Positions 1 through 24,625 of a DNA stretch of 37,572 nt are shown here, piece after piece. The position numbers and the translations under genes are program-made. Under the pieces are notes generated by a model, which was not told the DNA's origin, did no database searches, and saw only the letters and a program-made list of their open reading frames with translations. Origin of the DNA: Escherichia phage SKA5; the sequence record OR670062.1. One strand, written 5' to 3'. Position 1 is the stretch's first letter; the number at the start of each line of letters is the position of its first letter.

Positions 1-1734
1 TCATAGAATTAAGAGATCATCGTCCGGATCAAGAGATGAGAGGAAATCGTCAGGTTCTTTGAGCATTGCCCGACCGATCGTCATAATCAGTGCAACCGCA
101 CCATCGATTTTGTTTTCCGCCTGCTCCTTGACGGGCTTCACTAAATCATCGTTACCAGGCATGTTTTTGCCGACCACATTGCCGATACACCAGGTCATGA
201 TGGGATTGCCGTCATGATGAAAGCGCCCCGATTCAATCGCTGCTTCCAGCTCTTTCATCGGGTCGGACATATTGGCGAAGTTCTGGACGATAGTAACGGG
301 ATTCAGGTCTTCATCAGCAAGGTCATGTGACAGCCCGGTCGCCCCGAAAGGGTCGATGGGTGACTCACTGACCGGGCTGATTTTGTTCGCCGCTTTGGCC
401 TCTTCGAGGATGTAGCGATAATCCACCTCTGCACCATCGGTAACGGTCAGGACGCCCATTTCCACCCATTTCTGAAAGCGTTCGGCTGTCCGGCGATCTT
501 CATTTTTCTCGACGCTGTACACCGTGTCATACGGTACCCAGAAGCGCGGGGCCACACTGTAGTAATGCGTTTTACCGTCAATCTCGCGGGTATAAAGTCG
601 CGCCATGCTGTTCATATCCAGCTTACGCGCCAGGTCAAAGGCCAGAATGCACGGTTGCCCCTCGAACTGCTCAAGGGTCAGTGATTTATCCTCGCAGCTC
701 TGCCAGCTCACCAGATTAAAATAAGCCGAACGCGCCGACACCCAGATATTGAGGTGTTTTGTTTTAAAGACGTTTGCCAGACGGGCGTTATTTTTCGCAC
801 GCTGCTGCTGACTTAACAAAAATTCGCGATAAACCGACACGCCAATATTTGGATTGGCTTTTTCCAGCACCTGCGGGTCGGTCCAGTCGTCACCTTCGTC
901 AACGGTATAGATGATCCCGAACAGTTCATCGTTAGGCACCGAGCCGTTGAGCATCTCGATGACTTCCCGCCGCTTGTCGTAGCACGGCCCCTCAATGTTG
1001 TACCCGGCGGTGGTGATGGCCCACATCAGTGGCTGACGTCGCGCCCCCATCCCGGTAAGCATCGTGGTGTAAAGCGCATCGGTGGCGTGCTCGTGATATT
1101 CATCCACCACCGCACAGTGGGGTGATGAACCATCACCGGGGTTACCGATCAGCGGTTCAAACCGCGCGCCATCCTCCGGACGGTTCATGTTTGAAGCGTT
1201 AACCTCAATCCCGAACGCTTCCGTCAGCATGGGTGTGCGTTTACACATCAGTCGCGCCGGGCGAAAGACTTCCCACGCCTGTTTCTCTGTCGTGGCACCG
1301 GAATACACTTCCGCGCCAAACTCGTTATCACAGGCAAAACAATACAGGGCAACACCGGCAGAGATTGCTGATTTGCCGTTCTTACGGGGGATTTCGGTAT
1401 ACACCTCCCGGAAGCGGCGCAACCGGGTGCCTTTATTGACCCAGCCAAACGCACAGCAGATCACAAATAGCTGCCACGGCTCCAGCGTGATGGGCATCCG
1501 TTTGAATGCCCACTCACCCTTGGTGTGCGGCAACAGCTGAATAAATTTCGCGGCCCGTTCAGCCAGGTCCTTGTCGAAGCGGTAACGAAACGACTTACTT
1601 TTTTCCGCCATCAGGTCATCAAGATGGCGCTGGCAGGCCTGAATCACAAACTGGCAGGCCACAATCTTTCCGCGCACGACATCACGGGCATACTGATTGG
1701 CAGCATTTACGTTGGGGTAAGATTTCCGGCTCAT
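1..1734 (-). CDS. phage terminase large subunit
   Basis: 577-aa ORF, complete (stop codon is the reverse complement of nt 1-3). Start overlaps the stop of the upstream small terminase (ATGA). Sits after an HNH gene and a P27-type small subunit, as in HK97-like packaging modules. Confidence 0.9.
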
Positions 1735-2225
1735 GATTCGATGATTTTCAGAAACGGGTTAGTGGCTTTCTTCTGCCCCGCCAGGCCAATCAGACGCTGG
1801 CGGCTGCTGGGGTCGAGTCCGAGCATTGCCCCCGTGCTGCTCATCTCGGACTCCTGTTCTTTTTTGGCGGTCAGCTCCGGATTTTTGACCATACCGCCCA
1901 TTGCACCGGTGATGGTGTTGCCCTGTCTGGCAATATTTTTCACGGCACGTCGCCAGAACTCGTAGGCCACGCACCACCGCTCAAGCACCGCGAGGTCAGT
2001 CACGCACAGCAGGCCCTGACCGCAGAGTTCTTTAGTTGTCAGTTGCCACATGATCGTAGCGAGAGGGAGATCTTCTTCAGCGAACCACTCCGGTGGCTCA
2101 ACACCTTTGATGGGCGTAAAAACAGGTTCATCTTTATTCAGGGCTCGCTTGCCGGGGTTTCCGGCCAGCGCCTTGCGCGCCGTTGGCTTGGGGCGACGCC
2201 CGGAACGCCCCGCCGTTCCAGCCAT
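1731..2225 (-). CDS. phage terminase small subunit (P27-family-like)
   Basis: Basic N-terminus [14 protein letters not shown] typical of P27-type small terminases. ATG at 2225 has AGGAG 8 nt upstream; the ORF-track start at 2234 is GTG without a Shine-Dalgarno (SD) sequence. Confidence 0.8.
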
Positions 2226-2350
2226 ATGCGGCACTCCTGGTTAAATTTCATTTTTCGCGGGTATAAAAAAACGATGGGGCGGGCAGTCCGGAAGACGTCA
2301 GGCTGCAGGGATTTGACCCGCCCCTCCCCTCAGACAGTTGAGAATTATTA

Positions 2351-2701
2351 TCACTTTAACCGTTCACGGGCCGTCTTCGCCTTATGACACGGCCAGCACA
2401 GACTCTGCAGATTACTGTCAGCATCAGTGCCGCCATGCGCTTTAGGGATGATGTGGTCAACAGTTTTCGCCTCACGCACCACACCAGCACGCAGACATAA
2501 TTGACACAGGCCTTTGTCACGCTTCAGAACACGCGCGCGGATACTGTCCCACTTCGAACCGTAGCCGCGCTGATGACGGGATTGTCCAGGTTTGTATTGC
2601 TTCCAGCCTTCGCTTTTGTGGCTTTCGCAGTAGCCTGAAGGGTCAGTAGTGGTATGGCGGCAGCCGCGAACACGGCAGGCTTTCGGGGTTCGTGGCGGCA
2701 T
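2351..2701 (-). CDS. HNH endonuclease (packaging-associated)
   Basis: 116 aa with Cys-rich zinc motifs and an HNH signature (DHIIPKAHGGTD...N...CWPCH). Lies immediately upstream of the terminase genes, as in HK97-like cos phages. Confidence 0.85.
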   Translation of the reverse strand: MPPRTPKACRVRGCRHTTTDPSGYCESHKSEGWKQYKPGQSRHQRGYGSKWDSIRARVLKRDKGLCQLCLRAGVVREAKTVDHIIPKAHGGTDADSNLQSLCWPCHKAKTARERLK

Positions 2702-2747
2702 TAATGCTTCCCTTTAAGTTATTACGATGGAACAGACCATAGAAATG

Positions 2748-2775
2748 GCAATAAAAAACCGCCCGGAGGCGGTTC
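2748..2775 (-). terminator. rho-independent terminator downstream of moron ORF 2794..3114
   Basis: On the minus-strand transcript: hairpin CCGCCTCCGGGCGG followed by a U-run. Confidence 0.55.
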
Positions 2776-2793
2776 AATTATCATCTCGATAAA

Positions 2794-3114
2794 CTAAATC
2801 AGATCACCAATGTATTTTGCACTAATTGAAATTTGCATCTGAGGCATTCCGACCACAGATCCATTTAACAGGTAATCACGTCCTCGTTCCTGCAAAGAAA
2901 GACTCAATTCAAAGTTCTTTACCCCAGGGAAAACCGAGGTGACATTTAAATCATGCTGCGATACGCGCAGAATAAGTTGGCTACCGTCAATTTTTCCCTG
3001 ATACGTAAAACCAAAATCTCCGCCGTTTACTGCATTGTTTTTGACAACTACGGTACCATTACCAAAATCACGTTGATTGCTTCTGAAAACAACAAAATAG
3101 ATACCATCTTTCAT
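2794..3114 (-). CDS. hypothetical protein (AT-rich moron between lysis and packaging genes)
   Basis: 106-aa ORF with no signal peptide, its own terminator, and visibly lower GC than the flanks. No family recognised. Confidence 0.5.
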   Translation of the reverse strand: MKDGIYFVVFRSNQRDFGNGTVVVKNNAVNGGDFGFTYQGKIDGSQLILRVSQHDLNVTSVFPGVKNFELSLSLQERGRDYLLNGSVVGMPQMQISISAKYIGDLI

Positions 3115-3206
3115 GTGTAAAGCCCTTTAAAAGAGTCACCAAAATCAGGTGCTTTGTATCTATTGGGCCATCACATATCAAATCAAGGAACAAAACAAAG
3201 TTAACA

Positions 3207-3476
3207 TCATTTTTTTTGCATGATGTGACCACGCTCAACTTCAATCCTTCTGATGTCAGCTTTATCGGTATTACACTGCGCCAATGCAGACAACAAGGCG
3301 ACATTCAGATCTAAGCTCGAGCCCCACGTAAAATGATCAGGTAAATCAGGCTGAGGGGTTTCAGCCGTCAGGCTGGCTGGTAACGGAACTACCGGAACCT
3401 GGACGTAAACTGTTCGCGTACTTCCGCAACCGGTCAGCAGCGGCAGCAGGCACAGGACGTGAAGCACAATCATCAT
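3207..3476 (-). CDS. Rz1-like outer-membrane spanin lipoprotein
   Basis: ORF in an alternative frame overlapping the 3' end of the Rz-like gene. From the MM start: signal peptide with lipobox LLTGC followed by a Pro-rich segment. Confidence 0.55.
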   Translation of the reverse strand: MMIVLHVLCLLPLLTGCGSTRTVYVQVPVVPLPASLTAETPQPDLPDHFTWGSSLDLNVALLSALAQCNTDKADIRRIEVERGHIMQKK

Positions 3477-3753
3477 CCGCAACAGCCACTTTGATATCTT
3501 CCTGGGTTCTCTGTGACTCCAGTGCGATCTGCTGTTTTGCATGTTGATTCGCCTCCTGAATGATGTTCGTTATTGCCATAGTACGCAGAACATTCGCGGT
3601 GATAGCCTCAGTAGAATCAGCTCGCTGTTCCGCAGCATCAGCACGCTTCTGCTCCTCCAGAAACTTTCCATGATAGTGATTCGCTGACCAGACAAGACCA
3701 CCAGCGACACAAGCAATAAACGTTAAAATGAGCGCCCAATAACTCATCTTCAT
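3361..3753 (-). CDS. Rz-like inner-membrane spanin
   Basis: 130 aa with an N-terminal TM helix then a charged, coiled-coil-like region. Follows the endolysin with an ATGA overlap and contains the overlapping Rz1-like ORF. Confidence 0.7.
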   Translation of the reverse strand: MKMSYWALILTFIACVAGGLVWSANHYHGKFLEEQKRADAAEQRADSTEAITANVLRTMAITNIIQEANQHAKQQIALESQRTQEDIKVAVADDDCASRPVPAAAADRLRKYANSLRPGSGSSVTSQPDG

Positions 3754-4364
3754 ACCAGCAGCGCCGCCCGCGCCTTGTTGTATCGGACCTTACGATCCTC
3801 AATACCGTTCAAACCGCCGTTAATGATGCGCGTAACACGGTTAATATCGGCACCGTAGATCATGCAACCTTTAGAGGTGTAGAACCATGCAGCTGAGCGC
3901 GCAGCCTGTAGTTCCTGTTCCAGTTGTTCAGGTGAAGTCACCAGATCTAACTTCAGCGCCGCGCCACAGATGCGATAATTATGGAGGCCAGTGATTTGAA
4001 TTAATCCTCTACCACGATATTTCCAGCCATCACCTGGTGCTTTGTTACCCAGTCGGTTGCTATACACCAGATTGGCAATAGCATCCTGACGAGCTGCATG
4101 TCCGGATGTTCTGCCAAGGGCATCAGCCTGCTGCTGTGTGATCCTCTTTCCGAACGTCGCCACAAGCGCAGATGGTGTGTAGTTAAGATTTTCAACTACG
4201 GCGCTAAACCCCATCGACTCATGGCCTACCTGAGCGATAAACATTGCCTGATCCGCTGGTGCTGTAATGCCGAATTCCTTCATCGCCGCATCAATGTGCG
4301 GAAACCAGCGCGCAGCCAGCCCGGCGCTAATACCAGCCGCCTTTTGAAATAATTGTTGGTTCAT
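3750..4364 (-). CDS. endolysin, glycoside hydrolase family 19 type
   Basis: 204 aa with a GH19/chitinase-like catalytic region (AQVGHESMGF, GRGLIQITG, NY). Follows the holin-like genes. Confidence 0.85.
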   Translation of the reverse strand: MNQQLFQKAAGISAGLAARWFPHIDAAMKEFGITAPADQAMFIAQVGHESMGFSAVVENLNYTPSALVATFGKRITQQQADALGRTSGHAARQDAIANLVYSNRLGNKAPGDGWKYRGRGLIQITGLHNYRICGAALKLDLVTSPEQLEQELQAARSAAWFYTSKGCMIYGADINRVTRIINGGLNGIEDRKVRYNKARAALLV

Positions 4365-16830: not shown

Positions 16831-17250
16831 TTACTCATCATCAATAGATGATACGCAATATTTATTTTTAAATTTAAGGTTCTTTGGCGTAACTTCATCA
16901 GAGATATCAAAACCGTCCAGAATTCTATTGAATGTAGCTTCTGGCATATCATCATGAACAGAAATCTCACCCGATCGCTGCTTTCTAACCATGTTATCCA
17001 CTCGCCAAATTATAGCTTCAGCGTAAACAACATAACTTGGATGCTTGATAAAGCGATGATCACCAGAATTCAAGACGCAAGACGGATCGTGGGGGACACC
17101 ATCCTTGATACTAGAAATATTAACAACTAAAACACAATAACAATCGTTAACGGGGTAATAAACAGGATCATTACAAATCACATGAAGATGATTGCATGGC
17201 CCAGTTGGGGCAAGCACAGTTCCTTTCCTGTATGGCTGATAATCCGTCAT
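16831..17250 (-). CDS. hypothetical protein; candidate toxin/effector partner of the Panacea-domain protein
   Basis: 139 aa, Cys/His-containing, AT-rich codon usage. Its start overlaps the stop of the upstream Panacea-like gene (ATGA). No family recognised. Confidence 0.5.
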   Translation of the reverse strand: MTDYQPYRKGTVLAPTGPCNHLHVICNDPVYYPVNDCYCVLVVNISSIKDGVPHDPSCVLNSGDHRFIKHPSYVVYAEAIIWRVDNMVRKQRSGEISVHDDMPEATFNRILDGFDISDEVTPKNLKFKNKYCVSSIDDE

Positions 17251-17819
17251 GATAATTGCAAAGAAAATTCCTTAAGTTTCTGAGATTCTTCCATTTTGCC
17301 AATTATGCGATTAGCCTCATCCTCGCTTTTACCCTCACTGATCAGCATTTCTTTCAGGTCTATAGGCTTACGAGAATTGCCAGGATCGTGCCACTCTGGA
17401 CAAACGCTTTCTAAATGCGTCATATTTGCGAGATCAAATCGGTTCATATGCCCATACCGAGAATAGATTTCATCTAAAATCCGGATATCTGCACGACTCA
17501 ATTCATCAAAGACCTCGTCTGCATCCATTTCCCTCGGATCTGAACGCAACGATACATTATGCCCGTTCGTCTCTATCAAGTTGTACCAGTAGTCACCAAT
17601 GCCTTCAGCCTTACCGCGAATCAAGTTCAGCGTATTCGACATGACTGGTCCAAATTTCATAGAGTAAAGGCTATCTTCGCCGATCATCCTGCCATGCTTC
17701 AAAATCGACTGGCGGTTAGACAGATAGAGCAACTTCATCAATTTCAGATATGCCATGCGCCCACCTCGCTTAAGAAGTAGGTATGCAGCCATTTGAGCTA
17801 CTTTTTCTTCGCAAAACAT
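17247..17819 (-). CDS. Panacea (DUF4065, GepA/SocA-like) domain protein; candidate antitoxin
   Basis: 190 aa with motifs I associate with DUF4065 (AAYLL, KLMKLLYLSNRQS, FGPV, ILDEIYSRYG...LANMTHLESVCPEW). First gene of an AT-rich minus-strand unit. Confidence 0.6.
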   Translation of the reverse strand: MFCEEKVAQMAAYLLLKRGGRMAYLKLMKLLYLSNRQSILKHGRMIGEDSLYSMKFGPVMSNTLNLIRGKAEGIGDYWYNLIETNGHNVSLRSDPREMDADEVFDELSRADIRILDEIYSRYGHMNRFDLANMTHLESVCPEWHDPGNSRKPIDLKEMLISEGKSEDEANRIIGKMEESQKLKEFSLQLS

Positions 17820-18011
17820 ATAAGAAACCTCAAAGATAGTGAACTTTATAATTATTCTCGATACTTCATGGGTTGCTTCATCACCAACACGAGCTTCTTA
17901 TGGTGTGCCCACTTGGGCCTAAGCAACCAGTTACCTCGTTTGTCAAGTTTATAGCTGGCTTTAACCATGGTCAATTGAAGTGATGAGCAAATGATGCTTT
18001 CTAAGAATAAC

Positions 18012-18246
18012 AGGTTCCCAATAGGATCCCACAAAGTGTATAACTAGTTGTTTTTCAAAAACGGTACATCCTATCGAGCATAGGAGCAATGCTAAACCGA
18101 GAATTCCAGTAAACACCAGTTTTTTCAGGCATCACGCTGGTTTGATTAATTTTTTGTGTTTCATGATTATCGTGCATTTTTGAACATTTCAGGCTATTTT
18201 TCTCGCATTAGGTTCCCGCACAGGTTCCCACGTTTTATGGGAACCC
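18012..18246. repeat. clustered (A/G)GGTTCCC(A/G) repeats; candidate integrase arm-type sites / attP region
   Basis: Copies at 18012-18020, 18023-18031 (one mismatch), 18210-18218 and 18222-18230, with an inverted copy at 18238-18246, in the AT-rich non-coding stretch just upstream of the integrase gene. Confidence 0.35.
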
Positions 18247-18265
18247 GAAATAACGAGGTCGTGTA

Positions 18266-19363
18266 ATGGCGTACTATAACATAGAGAAACGACTAAAATC
18301 CGATGGCACACCACGCTATCGCTGTAATGTGATTATCAAAGAAAAAGGTGTTATCACTTACAGGGAAAGCAAAACATTCCCTAAACATGCTCATGCCAAA
18401 ACATGGGGCACACAGAAAGTGATGGAATTAGATCTATATGGCATTCCATCATCAAATGCAGTTGACGGACTTACAGTCCGTGACTTACTACACAAATATT
18501 TAAATGACCCAAATGCCGGAGGTAAAGCAGGCCGTACTAAAAGATATGTGCTGGAACTGCTTATGGATAGTGACATCTCCGCGATCAAACTATCTGAACT
18601 GACAGAAAATGACGTAATTGAACATTGCAGGCTAAGAAACAACGCTGGCGCAGGTCCAGCAACAGTCAGCCACGATGTTAGTTATCTTGGCAGTGTTCTG
18701 GATGCGGCCAAACCTGTATACGGAATTAATTACACATCAAACCCGGCGAAAAGTGCTCGTCCATATCTACTTAAACTTGGTTTGATTGGTAAATCAAACC
18801 GTCGTAATCGTAGACCAGCATCTGATGAACTGGACATGCTCATTGAAGGCCTTCAACAACGATCTACTCATAAATGCTCAAAAATTCCGTTCGTTGATAT
18901 CCTCAAATTTTCTGTGTGGTCCTGTATGCGAATCGGAGAAGTATGCCGGTTACGATGGGAAGATCTCGACCAGGAACAAAAATCTATACTCGTAAGAGAC
19001 AGGAAAGATCCACGCAAAAAGGAAGGCAACCACATGAAAGTAGCCTTGCTTGGGGAAGCCTGGGATATCGTCCAACGACAGCCCAAAAAATCGGAATTCA
19101 TTTTTCCATATAACAGCACTTCTATTACTGCGGGATTTCAGAGGGTAAGAAGCAAATTAGGTATTAAGGATCTGCGATACCATGATTTGCGTAGAGAAGG
19201 GGCAAGTCGCTTATTTGAGGCTGGTTTTAGTATTGAGGAAGTAGCCCAGGTTACAGGGCATCGTTCATTAAACGTGCTATGGCAGGTATATACCGAACTG
19301 TATCCGAAATCTTTACATAATCGTTTTGAAGAGCTCCAAAGGAGCAGAAATAAGACCCCTTGA
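18266..19363 (+). CDS. tyrosine-type site-specific integrase
   Basis: 365 aa with C-terminal catalytic-domain motifs (HDLRREGASRLF, GHRSLNVLWQVY). Confidence 0.9.
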   Translation: MAYYNIEKRLKSDGTPRYRCNVIIKEKGVITYRESKTFPKHAHAKTWGTQKVMELDLYGIPSSNAVDGLTVRDLLHKYLNDPNAGGKAGRTKRYVLELLMDSDISAIKLSELTENDVIEHCRLRNNAGAGPATVSHDVSYLGSVLDAAKPVYGINYTSNPAKSARPYLLKLGLIGKSNRRNRRPASDELDMLIEGLQQRSTHKCSKIPFVDILKFSVWSCMRIGEVCRLRWEDLDQEQKSILVRDRKDPRKKEGNHMKVALLGEAWDIVQRQPKKSEFIFPYNSTSITAGFQRVRSKLGIKDLRYHDLRREGASRLFEAGFSIEEVAQVTGHRSLNVLWQVYTELYPKSLHNRFEELQRSRNKTP

Positions 19364-19409
19364 CACTGTTTATCCATACAGTTAAAAATAATACTGTATA
19401 CAAACACAG
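19360..19409 (+). promoter_or_regulatory. SOS-regulated promoter region with two LexA boxes
   Basis: TTGACA at 19360-19365, then two CTGT-N8-ACAG boxes (CTGTTTATCCATACAG at 19366-19381; CTGTATACAAACACAG at 19394-19409), directly upstream of the dinI-like ATG. Confidence 0.6.
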
Positions 19410-19424
19410 TATAGAGGGACTTTT

Positions 19425-19673
19425 ATGCGTATTGAAATCTGCATAGCCAAAGAAAAAATGACTAAAATGCCAACCGGTGCTGTGGATGCGTTAAAGGAAG
19501 AATTAACCCGACGCATCAGTAAACGTTATGACGATGTAGAGGTGATCGTAAAAGCCACCAGCAACGATGGCCTTTCTGTTACACGCACCGCAGATAAGGA
19601 TTCTGCAAAAACTTTTGTTCAGGAGACTCTGAAAGATACCTGGGAATCTGCTGACGAGTGGTTTGTTCACTAA
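19425..19673 (+). CDS. DinI-family protein (SOS-inducible RecA modulator homolog)
   Basis: 82 aa; [10 protein letters not shown]-terminus and [16 protein letters not shown]-terminus closely resemble DinI. Confidence 0.85.
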
Positions 19674-19816
19674 TTAACACGTAAAATCGGTAACGGCTGG
19701 AAATCATTCAATAATCGCACTATCGAAAGTTCGCCAGCCAGCCGCAGCACGTTCTTGCATACGACGTGGCTGCGGCTTCCAACATTAGACAAATAACTCT
19801 TTAAATTGCTTTTAAA

Positions 19817-20380
19817 TTATTTCGTTTGAATGCCAGTAACAGGAAATCGTTTATATAGGGTTGATAGCCCAACGTTATAGATACGTGCAACATAACGCCG
19901 TGATTTCCCTGCCGCTATGAGCGCTCCCATCTGTTGCCACTGCTCGTCGCTAAACTTCGGTCTACGCCCACCAATCCGGCCTTTGGATCTGGCAATAGCC
20001 AAACCAGCTAAAGTTCGCTCGCTATTCAAATCAGATTCATACTGCGCAGCAGAAAGAATATTACGGAAATTATAGCGACCACTTGCTGTTTTCAGGTCTA
20101 CGCCATCTGTAATACTCCGAAAATTAACACCTTTTTCGTGCAGATTTTGAAACATCAATAGCGCATGCAGCACATTTCTCCCTATCCGATCTAACTTCCA
20201 GACAATCAACTCATCTCCACTTTTCATCACCGTAATTAATTCCTTTAACACAGGGCGATTAGCTGTTCTGCCACTGGCATATTCTTCATAAATTCGCTCA
20301 CAGCCAGCTGACTCAAGTGCAAGACGTTGCAACTCTGTATCCTGATGATTTGTTGATACACGAACATACCCGTAAATCAT
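19817..20380 (-). CDS. serine DNA invertase (Pin/Gin/Hin family)
   Basis: 187 aa; N-terminal resolvase catalytic domain (GYVRVSTNHQ with the Ser nucleophile) and a C-terminal HTH. Adjacent to the invertible tail-fibre segment. Confidence 0.9.
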   Translation of the reverse strand: MIYGYVRVSTNHQDTELQRLALESAGCERIYEEYASGRTANRPVLKELITVMKSGDELIVWKLDRIGRNVLHALLMFQNLHEKGVNFRSITDGVDLKTASGRYNFRNILSAAQYESDLNSERTLAGLAIARSKGRIGGRRPKFSDEQWQQMGALIAAGKSRRYVARIYNVGLSTLYKRFPVTGIQTK

Positions 20381-20439
20381 GAGTACTTCTCCTGTTGTAA
20401 AAACAGGAGAAGAGGCGAAATATCACCTGATTCAGAAAA

Positions 20440-20465
20440 ATATTTGAAAGGTTGGTTTGGGAGAA
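20440..20465. repeat. inversion crossover site (left), hix/gix-like
   Basis: ATATTTGAAAGGTTGGTTTGGGAGAA; inverted copy of the core TTCTCCCAAACCAA found at 22271-22296. Confidence 0.6.
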
Positions 20466-20918
20466 GGTTCGGCATTACCCGTTGGTGTGCCTGTCCCGTG
20501 GCCTTCCGCCACTCCGCCAACAGGCTGGCTAAAATGCAATGGTGCGGCTTTTTCTGCTGAAGAATACCCGGAACTGGCAAAGGTTTATCCGACAAATAAA
20601 TTGCCTGATTTACGCGGTGAATTTATTCGTGGCTGGGATGACGGACGTGGAGTGGATGCCGGGCGACAATTATTATCTTCACAGGGGGATGCAATAAGAA
20701 ATATTGAGGGATTCGCAGATGGCGGGATCGGTATGTCTTTTGATGCAATCAGAGGGGCTTTTTACGATGCAGGAACACGATCAGCGAGAATGCCGAATAA
20801 CACAACTACTATAGACAAAACCGATGACCTTGGATTCGACGCCTCTCGTGTCGTGCCAACAGCTAATGAAAACCGTCCACGTAACATCGCCTTTAATTAT
20901 ATTGTGAGGGCTGCATAA
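20457..20918 (+). CDS. alternative tail-fibre C-terminal segment (silent orientation)
   Basis: Open frame starts exactly at the crossover site (LGEGSALPVG) with a stop codon just upstream. It would fuse to the constant fibre N-terminus after inversion. Confidence 0.6.
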   Translation: MGEGSALPVGVPVPWPSATPPTGWLKCNGAAFSAEEYPELAKVYPTNKLPDLRGEFIRGWDDGRGVDAGRQLLSSQGDAIRNIEGFADGGIGMSFDAIRGAFYDAGTRSARMPNNTTTIDKTDDLGFDASRVVPTANENRPRNIAFNYIVRAA

Positions 20919-21511
20919 TGAAACCTGTTTTTGATGAAAATGGGCTGGCTACAGTGCCGGGTGATATGCGTTGTTTTTATTATGATGCAGTAACGTCTGA
21001 ATATACGGGCTGGTCTGATGAATATATTAATACTGGCGTAAGTATGCCCGCCTGTTCCACTGGTATTGACCCGGGCGAATACATTCCGGGGAAAGTGGCA
21101 GTATTTACGGGTAAGGGATGGAGCCATGAAGAAGACCACCGCAATGAGACTGTTTACTCAATCGAAAATGGCGCAGCTGTTACAGTGGATTATATCGGTG
21201 CCATCAAAGACGGTTATGTCACGCTTTCACCGTTAACGCCATACGATAAATGGGATGGTGAGAAATGGGTGACAGATACTGAGGCACAGCATAGTGCCGC
21301 ACTAGACGCGGCAGAAGCACAGCGCCAGTCGCTGATTGATGCTGCAATGGCTTCCATCAGTCTGATTCAACTGAAATTACAGGCCGGGCGGAAGCTGACG
21401 CAGGCAGAAACAACCCGACTTAACGCCGTGCTGGATTATATTGACGCGGTGACGGTAACAGATACCAGCACTGCGCCGGATGTCATCTGGCCTGAACTGC
21501 CGGAGGCGTAG
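20918..21511 (+). CDS. tail fibre assembly protein (partner of the alternative fibre)
   Basis: 197 aa; conserved Tfa C-terminus (LDYIDAVTVTDTSTAPDVIWPELP). Confidence 0.75.
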   Translation: MKPVFDENGLATVPGDMRCFYYDAVTSEYTGWSDEYINTGVSMPACSTGIDPGEYIPGKVAVFTGKGWSHEEDHRNETVYSIENGAAVTVDYIGAIKDGYVTLSPLTPYDKWDGEKWVTDTEAQHSAALDAAEAQRQSLIDAAMASISLIQLKLQAGRKLTQAETTRLNAVLDYIDAVTVTDTSTAPDVIWPELPEA

Positions 21512-21923
21512 GCCATTCAATATCTGGCGCACCGGAAGTATCGACCAGTTCCAGTGTGTCCAGATAATCCAGCCACAAATTATATTGCGCCAGTTCCTCA
21601 CCTTTCAGGCGACCAATCGCCGCTTTACCAGGCCATTGCTTACTGTTTATGTATTCGTTGACCTGATTAATCAATTGCTGCTTTTCCAGTTCGGCTGCGG
21701 CAATTTGTTCCTCATGAGTTGGCGGTGGAATATCAATCCATGCAGGCATTCCGTCGATGACACCTCTGTATTTTCCTTCTGGTGCTTCCTTCATAAATTC
21801 GGCGGCAACAGTGTCGTCAATTTCGATTCCATCATCGGGCCATTCGCCGGATTCCTGATAAGCGATTTTAAGCTCCACAGGGAAAAACGCATTTTTATCG
21901 GCACTGAAAATATATTTCTGCAT
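21483..21923 (-). CDS. tail fibre assembly protein
   Basis: 146 aa with the same Tfa C-terminal motif (LDYLDTLELVDTSGAPDIEWPTPP). Convergent with the other Tfa gene and overlapping it by 29 nt. Confidence 0.75.
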   Translation of the reverse strand: MQKYIFSADKNAFFPVELKIAYQESGEWPDDGIEIDDTVAAEFMKEAPEGKYRGVIDGMPAWIDIPPPTHEEQIAAAELEKQQLINQVNEYINSKQWPGKAAIGRLKGEELAQYNLWLDYLDTLELVDTSGAPDIEWPTPPAVQAR

Positions 21924-21925
21924 TT

Positions 21926-22573
21926 CTACCGTCCTATCGAAATATAACTGAATCTGTATTGCTGTGAGATATCACTGGTTGCCACACGCCACGCTGAATT
22001 ACTGATATGTTCAAAATTTACAGACAAAACCTGCGGGGCAGGATGCGACGGATCTGACTGAACGGCATCAGACATAACACTGACTGAAACCATCGGCTGA
22101 TTAGGGAATGGTATAGGGAAGTGTCCACTGATAAAGCGGGTCGTGTTTCCTGAAAAAGTGCCAAACTGAACAATATATCCACCTGGTAGCCTGAACCATC
22201 CCGAACCAGAAGCGAATGCTCCCATATCCGGTATCTGATTATCTCCTGTGCCCACATCCCTTTTCGCCGCTTCTCCCAAACCAAGGTTTTCGAGAGCCGT
22301 TTGCACAGTGCCATCCGATTTGATATCGCCAAACGGATTCTTGCGGCTTAACAGCAGCGCACGAAGTGCGGTAAGCAGCTGGTCGTGCCGCGCCTTCTCG
22401 AGACTGGCACCGGATGCCTCTACAACGCTGCAAAGCTCCTCCTGCAACATGTCAAAGTAGTCATCATCCAGATCGGTGGCAGGCGTGCCAGTCTGGGGGT
22501 TACCACGGGTAAAACCGTTCTTACCCGCGCCGAACTTATCCTTCTGCGCGGTTTTCGTGTCTATACGATGCAT
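21926..22573 (-). CDS. tail fibre protein (constant N-terminus plus currently expressed variable C-terminus)
   Basis: 215 aa, last gene of the tail operon. The inversion crossover site lies inside the gene at 22271-22296. Confidence 0.7.
22271..22296. repeat. inversion crossover site (right), hix/gix-like
   Basis: TTCTCCCAAACCAAGGTTTTCGAGAG inside the tail-fibre gene; resembles the hixL pattern. Confidence 0.6.
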
Positions 22574-22576
22574 GGA

Positions 22577-23161
22577 TTACTCCGGATATTTAAAAATTAC
22601 GTAGGTATGCGACGGGCAGAGTTTGTTAAGCACACATTCGACGACGGTGTCACCCCAGATACGCAGTGCGGAATCACAGGGATCGCCACATGTCATCCAG
22701 GTGGAGTTGGTGGTGGCTGGCATGTTGACCTGCCAGTAATACCGCCATTCCGGCGCATTCACCGCGTCAGTACAGGCCGATGAGCAGGTGAAAGTGCTTT
22801 TGTCGTATCGCGTGATGGTGGCATCTGGTCTGCCCAGGGCAGCAAGCTGTGCAAGGTAAAAATCCTCATTGATGCCGCCCGCCAGATTAACCTTCGCATC
22901 CAGCCGTTGCTGACGCTGGCGAAGGGTCTGTGTCCCTGCGGGAATACATTCATCCGGCAGACCGCACAGACGCTCCCAGCGGTTTATCAGTTCAGTGGTG
23001 GTGCGCGGATCCAGCTCCCGCATCAGGGCATCCGCACGCTGATGAACGCGGGTTAATGACGGTGCAGCACCGGCAATCGCCGGATCGCTGGCTGACCACG
23101 CCGGACCGGGCGGCAGCAGTGCCGACAACAGACGGATGTAATCATCGTTTGTCACGTCCAT
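22577..23161 (-). CDS. baseplate wedge/tail protein (Mu gp48 / e14 YmfQ-like)
   Basis: 194 aa; position and sequence type consistent with Mu-like baseplate protein gp48. Confidence 0.65.
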
Positions 23162-24210
23162 GAAATCGTCCCCAGAACCGCCAGTTCATTTTTTGCAATG
23201 GAGATATTGTCCGCCGGTGCAAGCAACTGATGGCTGTATTCCCCGTTCGCACCGGAAATCGCTTCACTGATACGTGACACCTTCAGTTCTCCCTGCGGAT
23301 AACCATCACGCAGCAGGAACGAACGCAACTCGGCGGTGATGGCAGCCCGTATTTCCGGTGTGTCCGGCGTCACGCGGATATGAAAATCCACCGTATGTGC
23401 CACCGGCCTGAACACATACAAATCAGAGCCTGCCACCGGGGCCAGTGGCTCGATATGTTGTCTTGCCGCCGTTTCCGTTGATTCTTCCGGAATGGGATTA
23501 ATCAGGTCACTGCTGGCAATCATCACACCGACAGTTCCCGTTCCCATCCAGTGACGGTATGTCCATGCGCGGGTAATGCCGGGCACTTCTTTAGCCCAGA
23601 CGACATAGTCCCCGTCAGCCCCGCCCTGCGGCGTCCAGTAATACCGCTCAATGACGCGGGCGCGCCACGTTTCCAGATCTTCAGTATCGAATCCGCCAGT
23701 CAGGGTATCTGCAACACCGGAAGACGGCAGACCATTCACCGGCGTGACCAGGATTAATGCCGTACCGTCGTCAGCGTTACCGACCGCGCCTGCACTTGAG
23801 CAAGTGATCGGCACGCGCAGGACACCACCGGAGCTGGTTGCATCAGCAGTTGCCGTGTACTGAACCAGGTCATCGCGCTGAATCACGCTCCCGGCGGTCA
23901 CCTTCAGGCCATCGCTGACACCTTCCCAGCGCATATACCCGCTGGCAGCCGTGGCCCCCTTGCGCGGACACCGTTTCATCGCAGCATGTCGCGCCAGCCA
24001 GGACTCATCGCACAGGTCAGGCAGCATATTCATTGCCAGATAATCGATGTACCCGTAGACCGTATGCAGCGCCGCCGCATACACCTTTGCCCGCACGTCT
24101 TCATCCATGCGCCGGAGCGTGTTGCTGACGTCCAGCCTGGCGAATAAATCGTTACGGAGCATACTGATATTTTCTGCCAGCGTCGGGCGCTGAAATTCAC
24201 TGTCCGCCAT
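23152..24210 (-). CDS. baseplate J-like protein (Mu gp47-like)
   Basis: 352 aa; gene order and size match baseplate J. Confidence 0.75.
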
Positions 24211-24625
24211 GCGTTATCGCACTCCACAGATCATCAAAAGAAATCATTACCGGTCCGTCACGACGCCAGAGAGTGATACTGTTACCCAGTTCATTAATCC
24301 CGGTACGGCGGATATCCAGATCAATACGGGACACCACGCCGTCATCAATCATCCATTGCAGGCATTCGCGGATATACCCCCTTACCGTCTGCACCAGCTG
24401 ATTGGTCAGTTTGCTGCGCTGAAGCAGCCACAGTCGGGAGCCGTAACGGTCATTCTGTACCGCAGGCCAGGTATCCCCCCACCATCCCATCGGGACGTCG
24501 GCGTTGTCATCAGGCTCCGCCCGCCGCCAGGTAAACAGGGAAATCACCACGGCGCGGGTCAGCGGATCCAGCGGTGCGCTGGCGCAGGTGCGTTTACCGT
24601 TCACCGTCAGCCACAGTTCCATCAT
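24197..24625 (-). CDS. baseplate protein (Mu gp46-like)
   Basis: 142 aa between the spike and baseplate J genes. Confidence 0.65.
   Translation of the reverse strand: MMELWLTVNGKRTCASAPLDPLTRAVVISLFTWRRAEPDDNADVPMGWWGDTWPAVQNDRYGSRLWLLQRSKLTNQLVQTVRGYIRECLQWMIDDGVVSRIDLDIRRTGINELGNSITLWRRDGPVMISFDDLWSAITHGGQ

Follow-up and report, generated by a model that had tools for sequence, protein, structure and literature searches.

Does the tail-fibre operon of Escherichia phage SKA5 (record OR670062.1) hold a working DNA inversion switch? The operon includes a fibre gene with one tip, while a second tip, with a chaperone gene of its own, lies in opposite orientation beside the gene for a serine recombinase, and a short inverted repeat bounds the two tips and their chaperone genes. 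All coordinates refer to the window, which is the entire 37,572-nucleotide stretch of this record. The evidence brought together here makes it very probable that a functional two-state switch of the Din family (Hin/Gin/Cin/Pin) lies in the tail-fibre operon of a temperate myovirus related to SfV and e14.

Recombination sites and invertible segment

The elements on which the switch depends are the following.

20440-20465: invertase-proximal site, 26 base pairs (bp), plus strand ATATTTGAAAGG TT GGTTTGGGAGAA
22271-22296: fibre-gene site, 26 bp, TTCTCCCAAACC-AA-GGTTTTCGAGAG, encoding LENLGLGE
20452-22284: invertible segment, 1833 bp from central dinucleotide to central dinucleotide, as placed by its match to a prophage of E. 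coli WR3-3 on the opposite strand

The longest inverted repeat within 18000-24500 has its arms at 20447-20466 and 22270-22289, which are complementary at 18 of 20 bases and lie 1803 nucleotides apart. The exact 14-mer TTCTCCCAAACCAA is present in two copies in 37.5 kb, on opposite strands, at 20452-20465 (minus) and 22271-22284 (plus). Both belong to sites with the 12-2-12 design of hix, gix, cix and pix; the sites are inverted with respect to each other and share the central dinucleotide AA, as inversion requires. The invertase-proximal site, which reads TTCTCCCAAACC-AA-CCTTTCAAATAT on the reverse strand, combines a perfect inner half-site with a degenerate outer one. The outer half-site of hixR is likewise degenerate. 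The same invertase-proximal sequence is found in the prophages of E. coli M8 and SK6988 and in phage mEp237, and it can be aligned with the pinE-proximal site of e14 and with gixR of Mu. The second site spans codons 93-101 of the 215-residue fibre gene. When all 26-mers of the window were scanned with a model of two half-sites, these two ranked first and second, scoring 17 and 14 of 18, and the next reached 12. Only two 26-mers score highly, and so the switch is a simple one with two sites. A shufflon of more sites, such as Min of p15B, was considered and rejected, as both the half-site scan and a search for the 14-mer that tolerated up to two mismatches (0.26 chance matches expected) returned only two sites.

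Inversion in natural genomes

An inverted version of SKA5 was constructed in silico and both versions were searched against 5426 complete E. coli genomes, where each finds loci that are colinear with it over both junctions. Junction-specific queries of 200 nucleotides located the junction of the SKA5 state beside this type of invertase in 19 of these genomes and the flipped junction in 43. The same cassette is seen in both orientations across dozens of sequenced E. coli strains.

Two pairs of prophages differ solely by the orientation of the segment. E. coli M8 (L006) and SK6988 (L007) each carry a prophage at dusA which has the same two sites and encodes an invertase 100% identical in protein sequence to that of SKA5. 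The flanks of the two prophages show one mismatch in 4767 bp and none in 4431 bp (99.98-100% identity), and the 1827-bp segment between them is 100% identical and lies in opposite orientation. E. coli 22AR0747 (L002) and WR3-3 (L003) each have an e14-type prophage, located at icd, whose invertase is of the PinE type and whose segment is 98.7% identical to that of SKA5. Between these two strains the flanks next to the segment match at 100%, the 1833-bp segment lies in opposite orientation and the breakpoints overlap in the 15-nucleotide core. SKA5 itself is colinear at 98% with the flanks of a further prophage (L005) in which the segment is inverted. Exactly the inversion predicted for SKA5 has taken place in natural strains that have its invertase and its sites. 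The original prediction had named the lack of an inverted orientation, together with an inactive invertase, as the outcome that would speak against a switch, and the two prophage pairs in public genomes contradict it. In the related e14 prophage, inversion of the P segment was shown by whole-genome sequencing, polymerase chain reaction (PCR) and quantitative PCR (PMC4272514; PMC12529663), and the e14 core CCTTCTCCCAAACCAA is the experimentally shown crossover (PMC12529663).

As a separate observation, several draft contigs stop about 80-240 nucleotides past the invertase-proximal site (Kluyvera sichuanensis L012 at position 81 and L016 at position 82; also L013 at position 239). Such contig ends are what an assembler yields when the sequenced culture contains both orientations.

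Genes and reading frames of the switch

Seven genes or gene parts make up the switch and its upstream neighbourhood.

19817-20380, minus strand: DNA invertase, 187 residues, just outside the segment (Pfam Resolvase 3.3e-36, HTH_7 7.3e-12)
20457-20918, plus strand: silent alternative fibre C-terminus, Sv' (Pfam Collar 3.2e-15)
20918-21511, plus strand: tail fibre assembly (Tfa) chaperone for the Collar-type tip, 197 residues, silent in the SKA5 orientation (Caudo_TAP 2.8e-26)
21483-21923, minus strand: Tfa chaperone for the gp53-like tip, 146 residues, expressed in the SKA5 orientation (Caudo_TAP 2e-34)
21926-22573, minus strand: tail fibre gene, 215 residues, expressed (Gp53-like_C 1.2e-08)
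22577-23161, same strand as the fibre gene, which comes after it: baseplate protein gp48/YmfQ of the Mu type
23152-24210, same strand as the fibre gene: baseplate protein gp47/J of the Mu type

The fibre gene consists of a constant N-terminus (22285-22573) and a variable gp53-like C-terminus (21926-22270). The Collar-type reading frame has no ATG and apparently no promoter of its own, and its frame matches the crossover: a swap of 20452-22284 at the central dinucleotide, made in silico, gives an uninterrupted fibre of 251 residues which runs into the Collar domain. The predicted fusion is annotated as a 'phage tail protein' in the prophages of WR3-3 (244 of 251 residues identical) and L005 (243 of 251), an identity of about 97%. 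A TGA (20445-20447), three codons upstream of the crossover, closes the silent frame where it now lies, so that no full protein results; on the invertase side of this frame just a TTG without a clear promoter is left. Annotators are cautioned that a 'phage tail protein' fragment beside an invertase is half a gene. The two tips carry unrelated domains, gp53-like C-terminal and Collar, each with a dedicated Tfa chaperone, and the two Tfa genes are convergent and overlap by 29 bp. A consensus scan found 5 promoters and 3 terminators where shuffled sequence gave 5.1 and 2.8, and so is silent both on a promoter for the invertase and on one for the silent genes. None of the five proteins is assigned to a specific family by NCBIfam, all of whose matches to the invertase fall far under the cut-offs.

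The original prediction had described most of this arrangement from the sequence, and its description stands. The enzyme flanking the segment is a serine invertase by its Resolvase and HTH_7 domains and its alignment with Gin; the proposed hix/gix-like sites are the top two 26-mers of the window, inverted and with an AA core; and the proposed limits, 20440-22296, are the exact outer edges of both. One site does lie at the boundary between the constant and variable parts of the fibre. The description of the alternative C-terminus as promoterless and in frame through the crossover is supported as well, its frame being borne out by the in-silico fusion, and the convergent, overlapping chaperone genes claimed for the two variable ends both match Caudo_TAP.

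The invertase and its subfamily

The invertase is colinear with the Gin structures 3UJ3 and 4M6F over residues 1-181 without gaps (E 1e-56) and combines a catalytic Ser9 with a C-terminal helix-turn-helix. R7, S9, R42, D64, R65, R68, E121 and R122 are all present, and these catalytic residues are conserved or nearly so in an alignment of 115 full-length representatives of its subfamily (77-99% identical). The protein of SKA5 is found unchanged in the four prophages L004-L007. It is 79% identical to the enzyme of mEp237 and 50-55% identical to Gin, Cin, PinE and the enzyme of phage pro483 (Gin 50%, PinE 55.6%), which are far closer to one another than to the SKA5 invertase. A database search returned more than 2000 relatives, of which the best 120 clusters show 77-100% identity in the aligned part, derive from Escherichia, Salmonella, Citrobacter, Klebsiella, Enterobacter, Serratia and other genera, and are nearly all named merely 'recombinase family protein'. 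Judged by sequence, the enzyme belongs to a large, uncharacterised enterobacterial subfamily of the Din family. A literature search on this subfamily, or on natural Fis-independent fibre invertases, returned nothing specific.

The subfamily is set apart most clearly in helix E, where all 115 representatives have Y103, N104, F105, R106, I108 and Y114 (Y-N-F-R-N-I...Y) in place of the F, F, F, H, M and M of the canonical enzymes Gin, PinE, Cin and pro483 (F-F-F-H-V-M...M). These positions map to Hin F104, F105, F106, H107, M109 and M115, the Gin numbering being that of Hin minus 1, and Asn104 of the subfamily is thus the counterpart of Hin F105. The inactive Hin dimer is locked by F105 and M109, and roughly one in two substitutions at these residues makes Hin bypass Fis; the F105N mutant inverts faster than wild type, is active in fis mutant cells and causes strong SOS induction.

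Members of the subfamily adjoin a proximal ...AAACC-AA-CCTTT... site in many genera. An inverted partner site lies 1.7-3.4 kb upstream in loci of Morganella, Erwinia and Kluyvera, so that invertible segments regularly accompany the subfamily. In mEp237 (L009) the proximal site, at position 3916, stands alone, with no partner in the approximately 3.9 kb fetched upstream.

Proposed mechanism and the points against it

It is proposed that the late operon on the minus strand would always transcribe the constant part of the fibre, whose first 97-101 residues or so would attach to the Mu-like baseplate, and that transcription would then enter whichever end of the 1833-bp segment faces the constant part. 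The SKA5 orientation would give the 215-residue fibre with its gp53-like tip together with the 146-residue Tfa, and the inverted orientation the 251-residue fibre with its Collar-domain tip together with the 197-residue Tfa. Dimers of the invertase would bind both 26-bp sites, synapse, cut at the central AA/TT dinucleotide, rotate and religate, which would flip the segment, and a population of lysogens would release two types of virion with different receptor-binding tips. We infer that the cis-encoded invertase is the catalyst of the inversion. By analogy with Hin and Gin the reaction would presumably use Fis and an enhancer, and by analogy with Mu and P1 the two tips would recognise different receptors or confer different host ranges. 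The unrelated tip domains with their own chaperones fit such a change of receptor.

Several points weigh against this reading. The orientation polymorphism is known from relatives of SKA5 and not from reads of SKA5 itself. E. coli strains often contain several cross-acting invertases, and one such enzyme, PinQ from the Qin prophage, inverts the segment of e14 (PMC12529663); the natural inversions are therefore no proof that the cis-encoded enzyme acted. The literature searched shows no host-range test for any SfV/e14-like phage. The remaining points concern Fis. Six residues have been described as uniquely conserved in Fis/enhancer-dependent invertases, namely Hin K47, R/K48, K/R51, Q151, R154 and L155 (PMC3798978), and the SKA5 enzyme, with K, E, T, Q, A and L at these positions, is changed in three of them. 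Positions 51, 151, 154 and 155 are variable among the 115 representatives, nor is the Fis-contact patch conserved among them. The changed residues lower the claim that this is a canonical Fis-dependent invertase and not the claim that it is a working one.

By comparison with hin, the two Fis sites of a putative enhancer would lie some 48 bp apart within the 5' end of the invertase gene, at about nucleotides 23-37 and 71-85. The A/T-rich segments ATTTA and TAATG named in the literature fit these positions (PMC3798978). SKA5 keeps TATCAACAAATCATC at the first position; at the distal one, where gin and pinE have a candidate Fis site, it has CAGCTGGCTGTGAGC, in which the G at -7 is lost, and mEp237 lacks both the G and the C. 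A crude scan for Fis motifs over four invertase genes was ambiguous. A profile of synonymous sites, for which 14 genes of the subfamily and 5 canonical ones were used, is noisy and shows little variation in codons 1-18 and an average amount at the expected distal Fis site.

Alternative explanations

The alternative that survives best, although very unlikely, is that the switch is a fossil or is driven in trans only, the cis-encoded invertase being inactive or irrelevant and the conserved sites being flipped by PinE, PinQ and Fin-like enzymes. The cross-action of Din invertases, of which PinQ is the documented example (PMC12529663), is in its favour, as are the 22AR0747 and WR3-3 prophages, in which a PinE-type enzyme accompanies a segment almost identical to that of SKA5, and the helix-E and Fis-contact residues by which the SKA5 enzyme departs from Gin, PinE and Cin. 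Against it, the catalytic residues are intact in SKA5 and conserved or nearly so throughout the alignment, the gene is an intact reading frame whose product is the same in L004-L007, and the recurrent pairing of invertase and site over many genera implies long-term selection for a working pair.

It is very unlikely that the main selected function is instead the defence of the lysogen, by means of a chimera like StfE2 which would arise from the invertase-proximal flank and block the adsorption of phages such as T2. Inversion of the e14 P segment does yield StfE2, which blocks T2 adsorption (Kirigo et al. 2025, PMC12529663), and the SKA5 segment is homologous to that of e14. However, loci of the e14/PinE type have an ATG leader that runs into the segment (StfE starts MPFACYFF..., and a 131-residue reading frame is annotated in WR3-3), whereas the invertase-side frame of SKA5 is without such a leader and ends at the TGA described above. 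SKA5 is moreover an apparently complete phage, so its fibre genes presumably serve the building of virions.

The notion that the inverted repeat is a chance feature, or the scar of horizontal swaps of fibre cassettes rather than a programmed inversion site, can be dismissed with near certainty. Phage and prophage homology is indeed bounded exactly at the sites (500465-2, vB_EcoM-611R5, L004), but the sites have the full 12-2-12 Din architecture, and the isogenic pairs, in which an inversion with core breakpoints is the sole difference, refute this notion as the only explanation.

Control of the invertase

Within the preferred reading of a functional two-state inversion switch, the control of the invertase is the part that may depart from precedent. 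One further element lies between the invertase gene and its proximal site.

20386-20412, minus strand: invertase leader hairpin, perfect over 11 bp, arms CTTCTCCTGTT/AACAGGAGAAG, the 3' arm holding the Shine-Dalgarno sequence AGGAG

The RNA of 20366-20440 (minus strand) folds with -25.3 kcal/mol (z = -4.8), and none of 200 shuffled sequences folds as well. The hairpin is kept in L004-L006 and in mEp237, and in other genera with one compensatory change of an outer pair from C-G to T-A; upstream of pinE and gin it is weaker or absent. It probably limits translation of the invertase. A more tentative suggestion, which we regard as doubtful, is that control throughout the subfamily differs from that of Hin and Gin, in that these enzymes may be relaxed in their need for Fis and the enhancer or independent of them, and may be held in check by hairpin-limited translation. 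If the enzyme is Fis-independent, it would be a natural counterpart to the hyperactive Hin and Gin mutants that have been used for dissecting the control of serine recombinases. The divergent invertase subfamily is the sole point of this locus that could interest specialists.

Cassette exchange at the sites

Homology between SKA5 and many phages and prophages starts or stops exactly at the sites. The P2-like phages 500465-2 and vB_EcoM-611R5 match only 20877-22289 of SKA5, at about 96%. The prophage L004 has the integrase, DinI, invertase and cassette in common with SKA5, ceases to match it about 50 bp into the constant fibre region (L004 6572-6649) and has a different baseplate. As homology ends at the sites, the crossover site is also a junction for the horizontal exchange of cassettes that consist of a fibre tip and its chaperone. 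This exchange between unrelated tail types adds to inversion and does not replace it.

Phage identity and surroundings

SKA5 aligns with SfV over 49% of its length at 96.7% identity and with vB_EcoM-720R4 over 66% at 97.3%. Head, tail, lysis and lysogeny modules are all present and the phage is apparently complete; by these sequence matches it is an SfV/e14-like temperate myovirus. Its morphogenesis module is one that SfI, SfV and e14 have in common (PMC3636060). The window from 1 to 37572 resembles an entire SfV-like phage genome. The stop codon of a 577-residue gene that matches annotated large terminase subunits begins at position 1, and near the other end of the window a 424-residue gene (36199-37473) matches the portal region of SfV. 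A gene for a lambdoid CI-like repressor is found at 12142-12795 and one for an Rv2179c-like 3'-5' exoribonuclease at 15676-16080.

The lysogeny functions nearest to the switch include the integrase.

18266-19363: tyrosine integrase, 365 residues, adjoining dusA in related E. coli prophages (L004-L007 positions 1438-3664)

Homology of SKA5 to the dusA-linked prophage loci starts at about 18074-18079, within the 5' end of dusA, and SKA5 therefore seems to integrate into dusA and to supply a replacement 5' end. The phage attachment site (attP) seems to lie just left of the integrase gene. A DinI-like gene of the MsgA type (19425-19673, plus strand) is located between the integrase and invertase genes, and mEp237 has the same DinI and invertase neighbours. 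Beside the presumed attP, a module of two overlapping genes (16831-17819, minus strand) encodes a 190-residue protein with a SocA/Panacea antitoxin domain and a 139-residue protein without a Pfam match. The two may act as toxin and antitoxin or in abortive infection.

Comparison with known systems

As a tail-fibre switch the locus holds nothing conceptually new, the mechanism being the textbook one of the Mu G, P1 C and e14 P segments. The closest of these is the P segment of e14 in E. coli K-12 (L001), which has the gene order ymfQ-stfP-tfaP-tfaE'-stfE'-pinE in the same orientation as SKA5. The site within stfP is identical to the fibre-gene site of SKA5 at 26 of 26 bases, and the proximal sites have the inner half and the central dinucleotide in common. 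The constant parts of the two fibres agree at 100 of 101 residues, beyond which StfP diverges, and the YmfQ proteins are 99.5% identical. The Tfa genes of e14 also overlap by 29 bp and the segments are similar in size (1797 bp in e14, 1833 bp in SKA5). Unlike these shared parts, the invertase belongs to another subfamily than PinE, the tips and Tfa proteins are only 55-63% identical (StfE 61%, TfaE 63%, TfaP 55%), and the outer half of the proximal site is CCTTTCAAATAT in SKA5 and CGTTTATGAAAA in e14. SKA5 lacks mcrA as well as an ATG leader entering the segment from the invertase side. Whereas e14 is defective and resides at icd, SKA5 is intact, has a different integrase and has relatives at dusA. 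That SKA5 could be e14 itself was considered and rejected, as the two have different invertases, integrases, attachment sites and variable cassettes.

The G segment of Mu, which is inverted by Gin, shows the same order of Sc, Sv-U-U'-Sv' and invertase (S-U-U'-S'-gin) downstream of the Mu-type baseplate genes gp47 and gp48. Its 26-bp gix site is alignable with the SKA5 sites, and the invertase is likewise transcribed away from the segment. The Mu segment is, however, about 3 kb long, with much longer fibres and no overlap between U and U', and the helix-E and Fis-contact residues common to Gin, PinE, Cin and the pro483 enzyme are changed in the SKA5 invertase. The C segment of P1, inverted by Cin, and the switches of P2-like phages follow the same logic. 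In the P2-like phage pro483 the layout is tfa, tfa', a Collar-type Sv' and the invertase, and some P2-like cassettes are 96% identical to part of that of SKA5. These phages differ in the constant parts of their fibres and in virion type, and their invertases are canonical Gin/Cin/Pin enzymes, 53-55% identical to that of SKA5.

Hin, which governs flagellar phase variation in Salmonella, is of the same recombinase family, acts at hix sites of the same 26-bp design and is the source of the mechanistic model for control by Fis and the enhancer. Unlike the SKA5 switch, it flips a promoter and not the ends of coding sequences, and its residues F105, H107, M109, M115, R48, K51 and R154 are replaced in the SKA5 enzyme by N, R, I, Y, E, T and A. 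Set among these systems, the SKA5 locus shows the form that the P region of the defective e14 prophage takes in an intact, apparently functional SfV-like phage.

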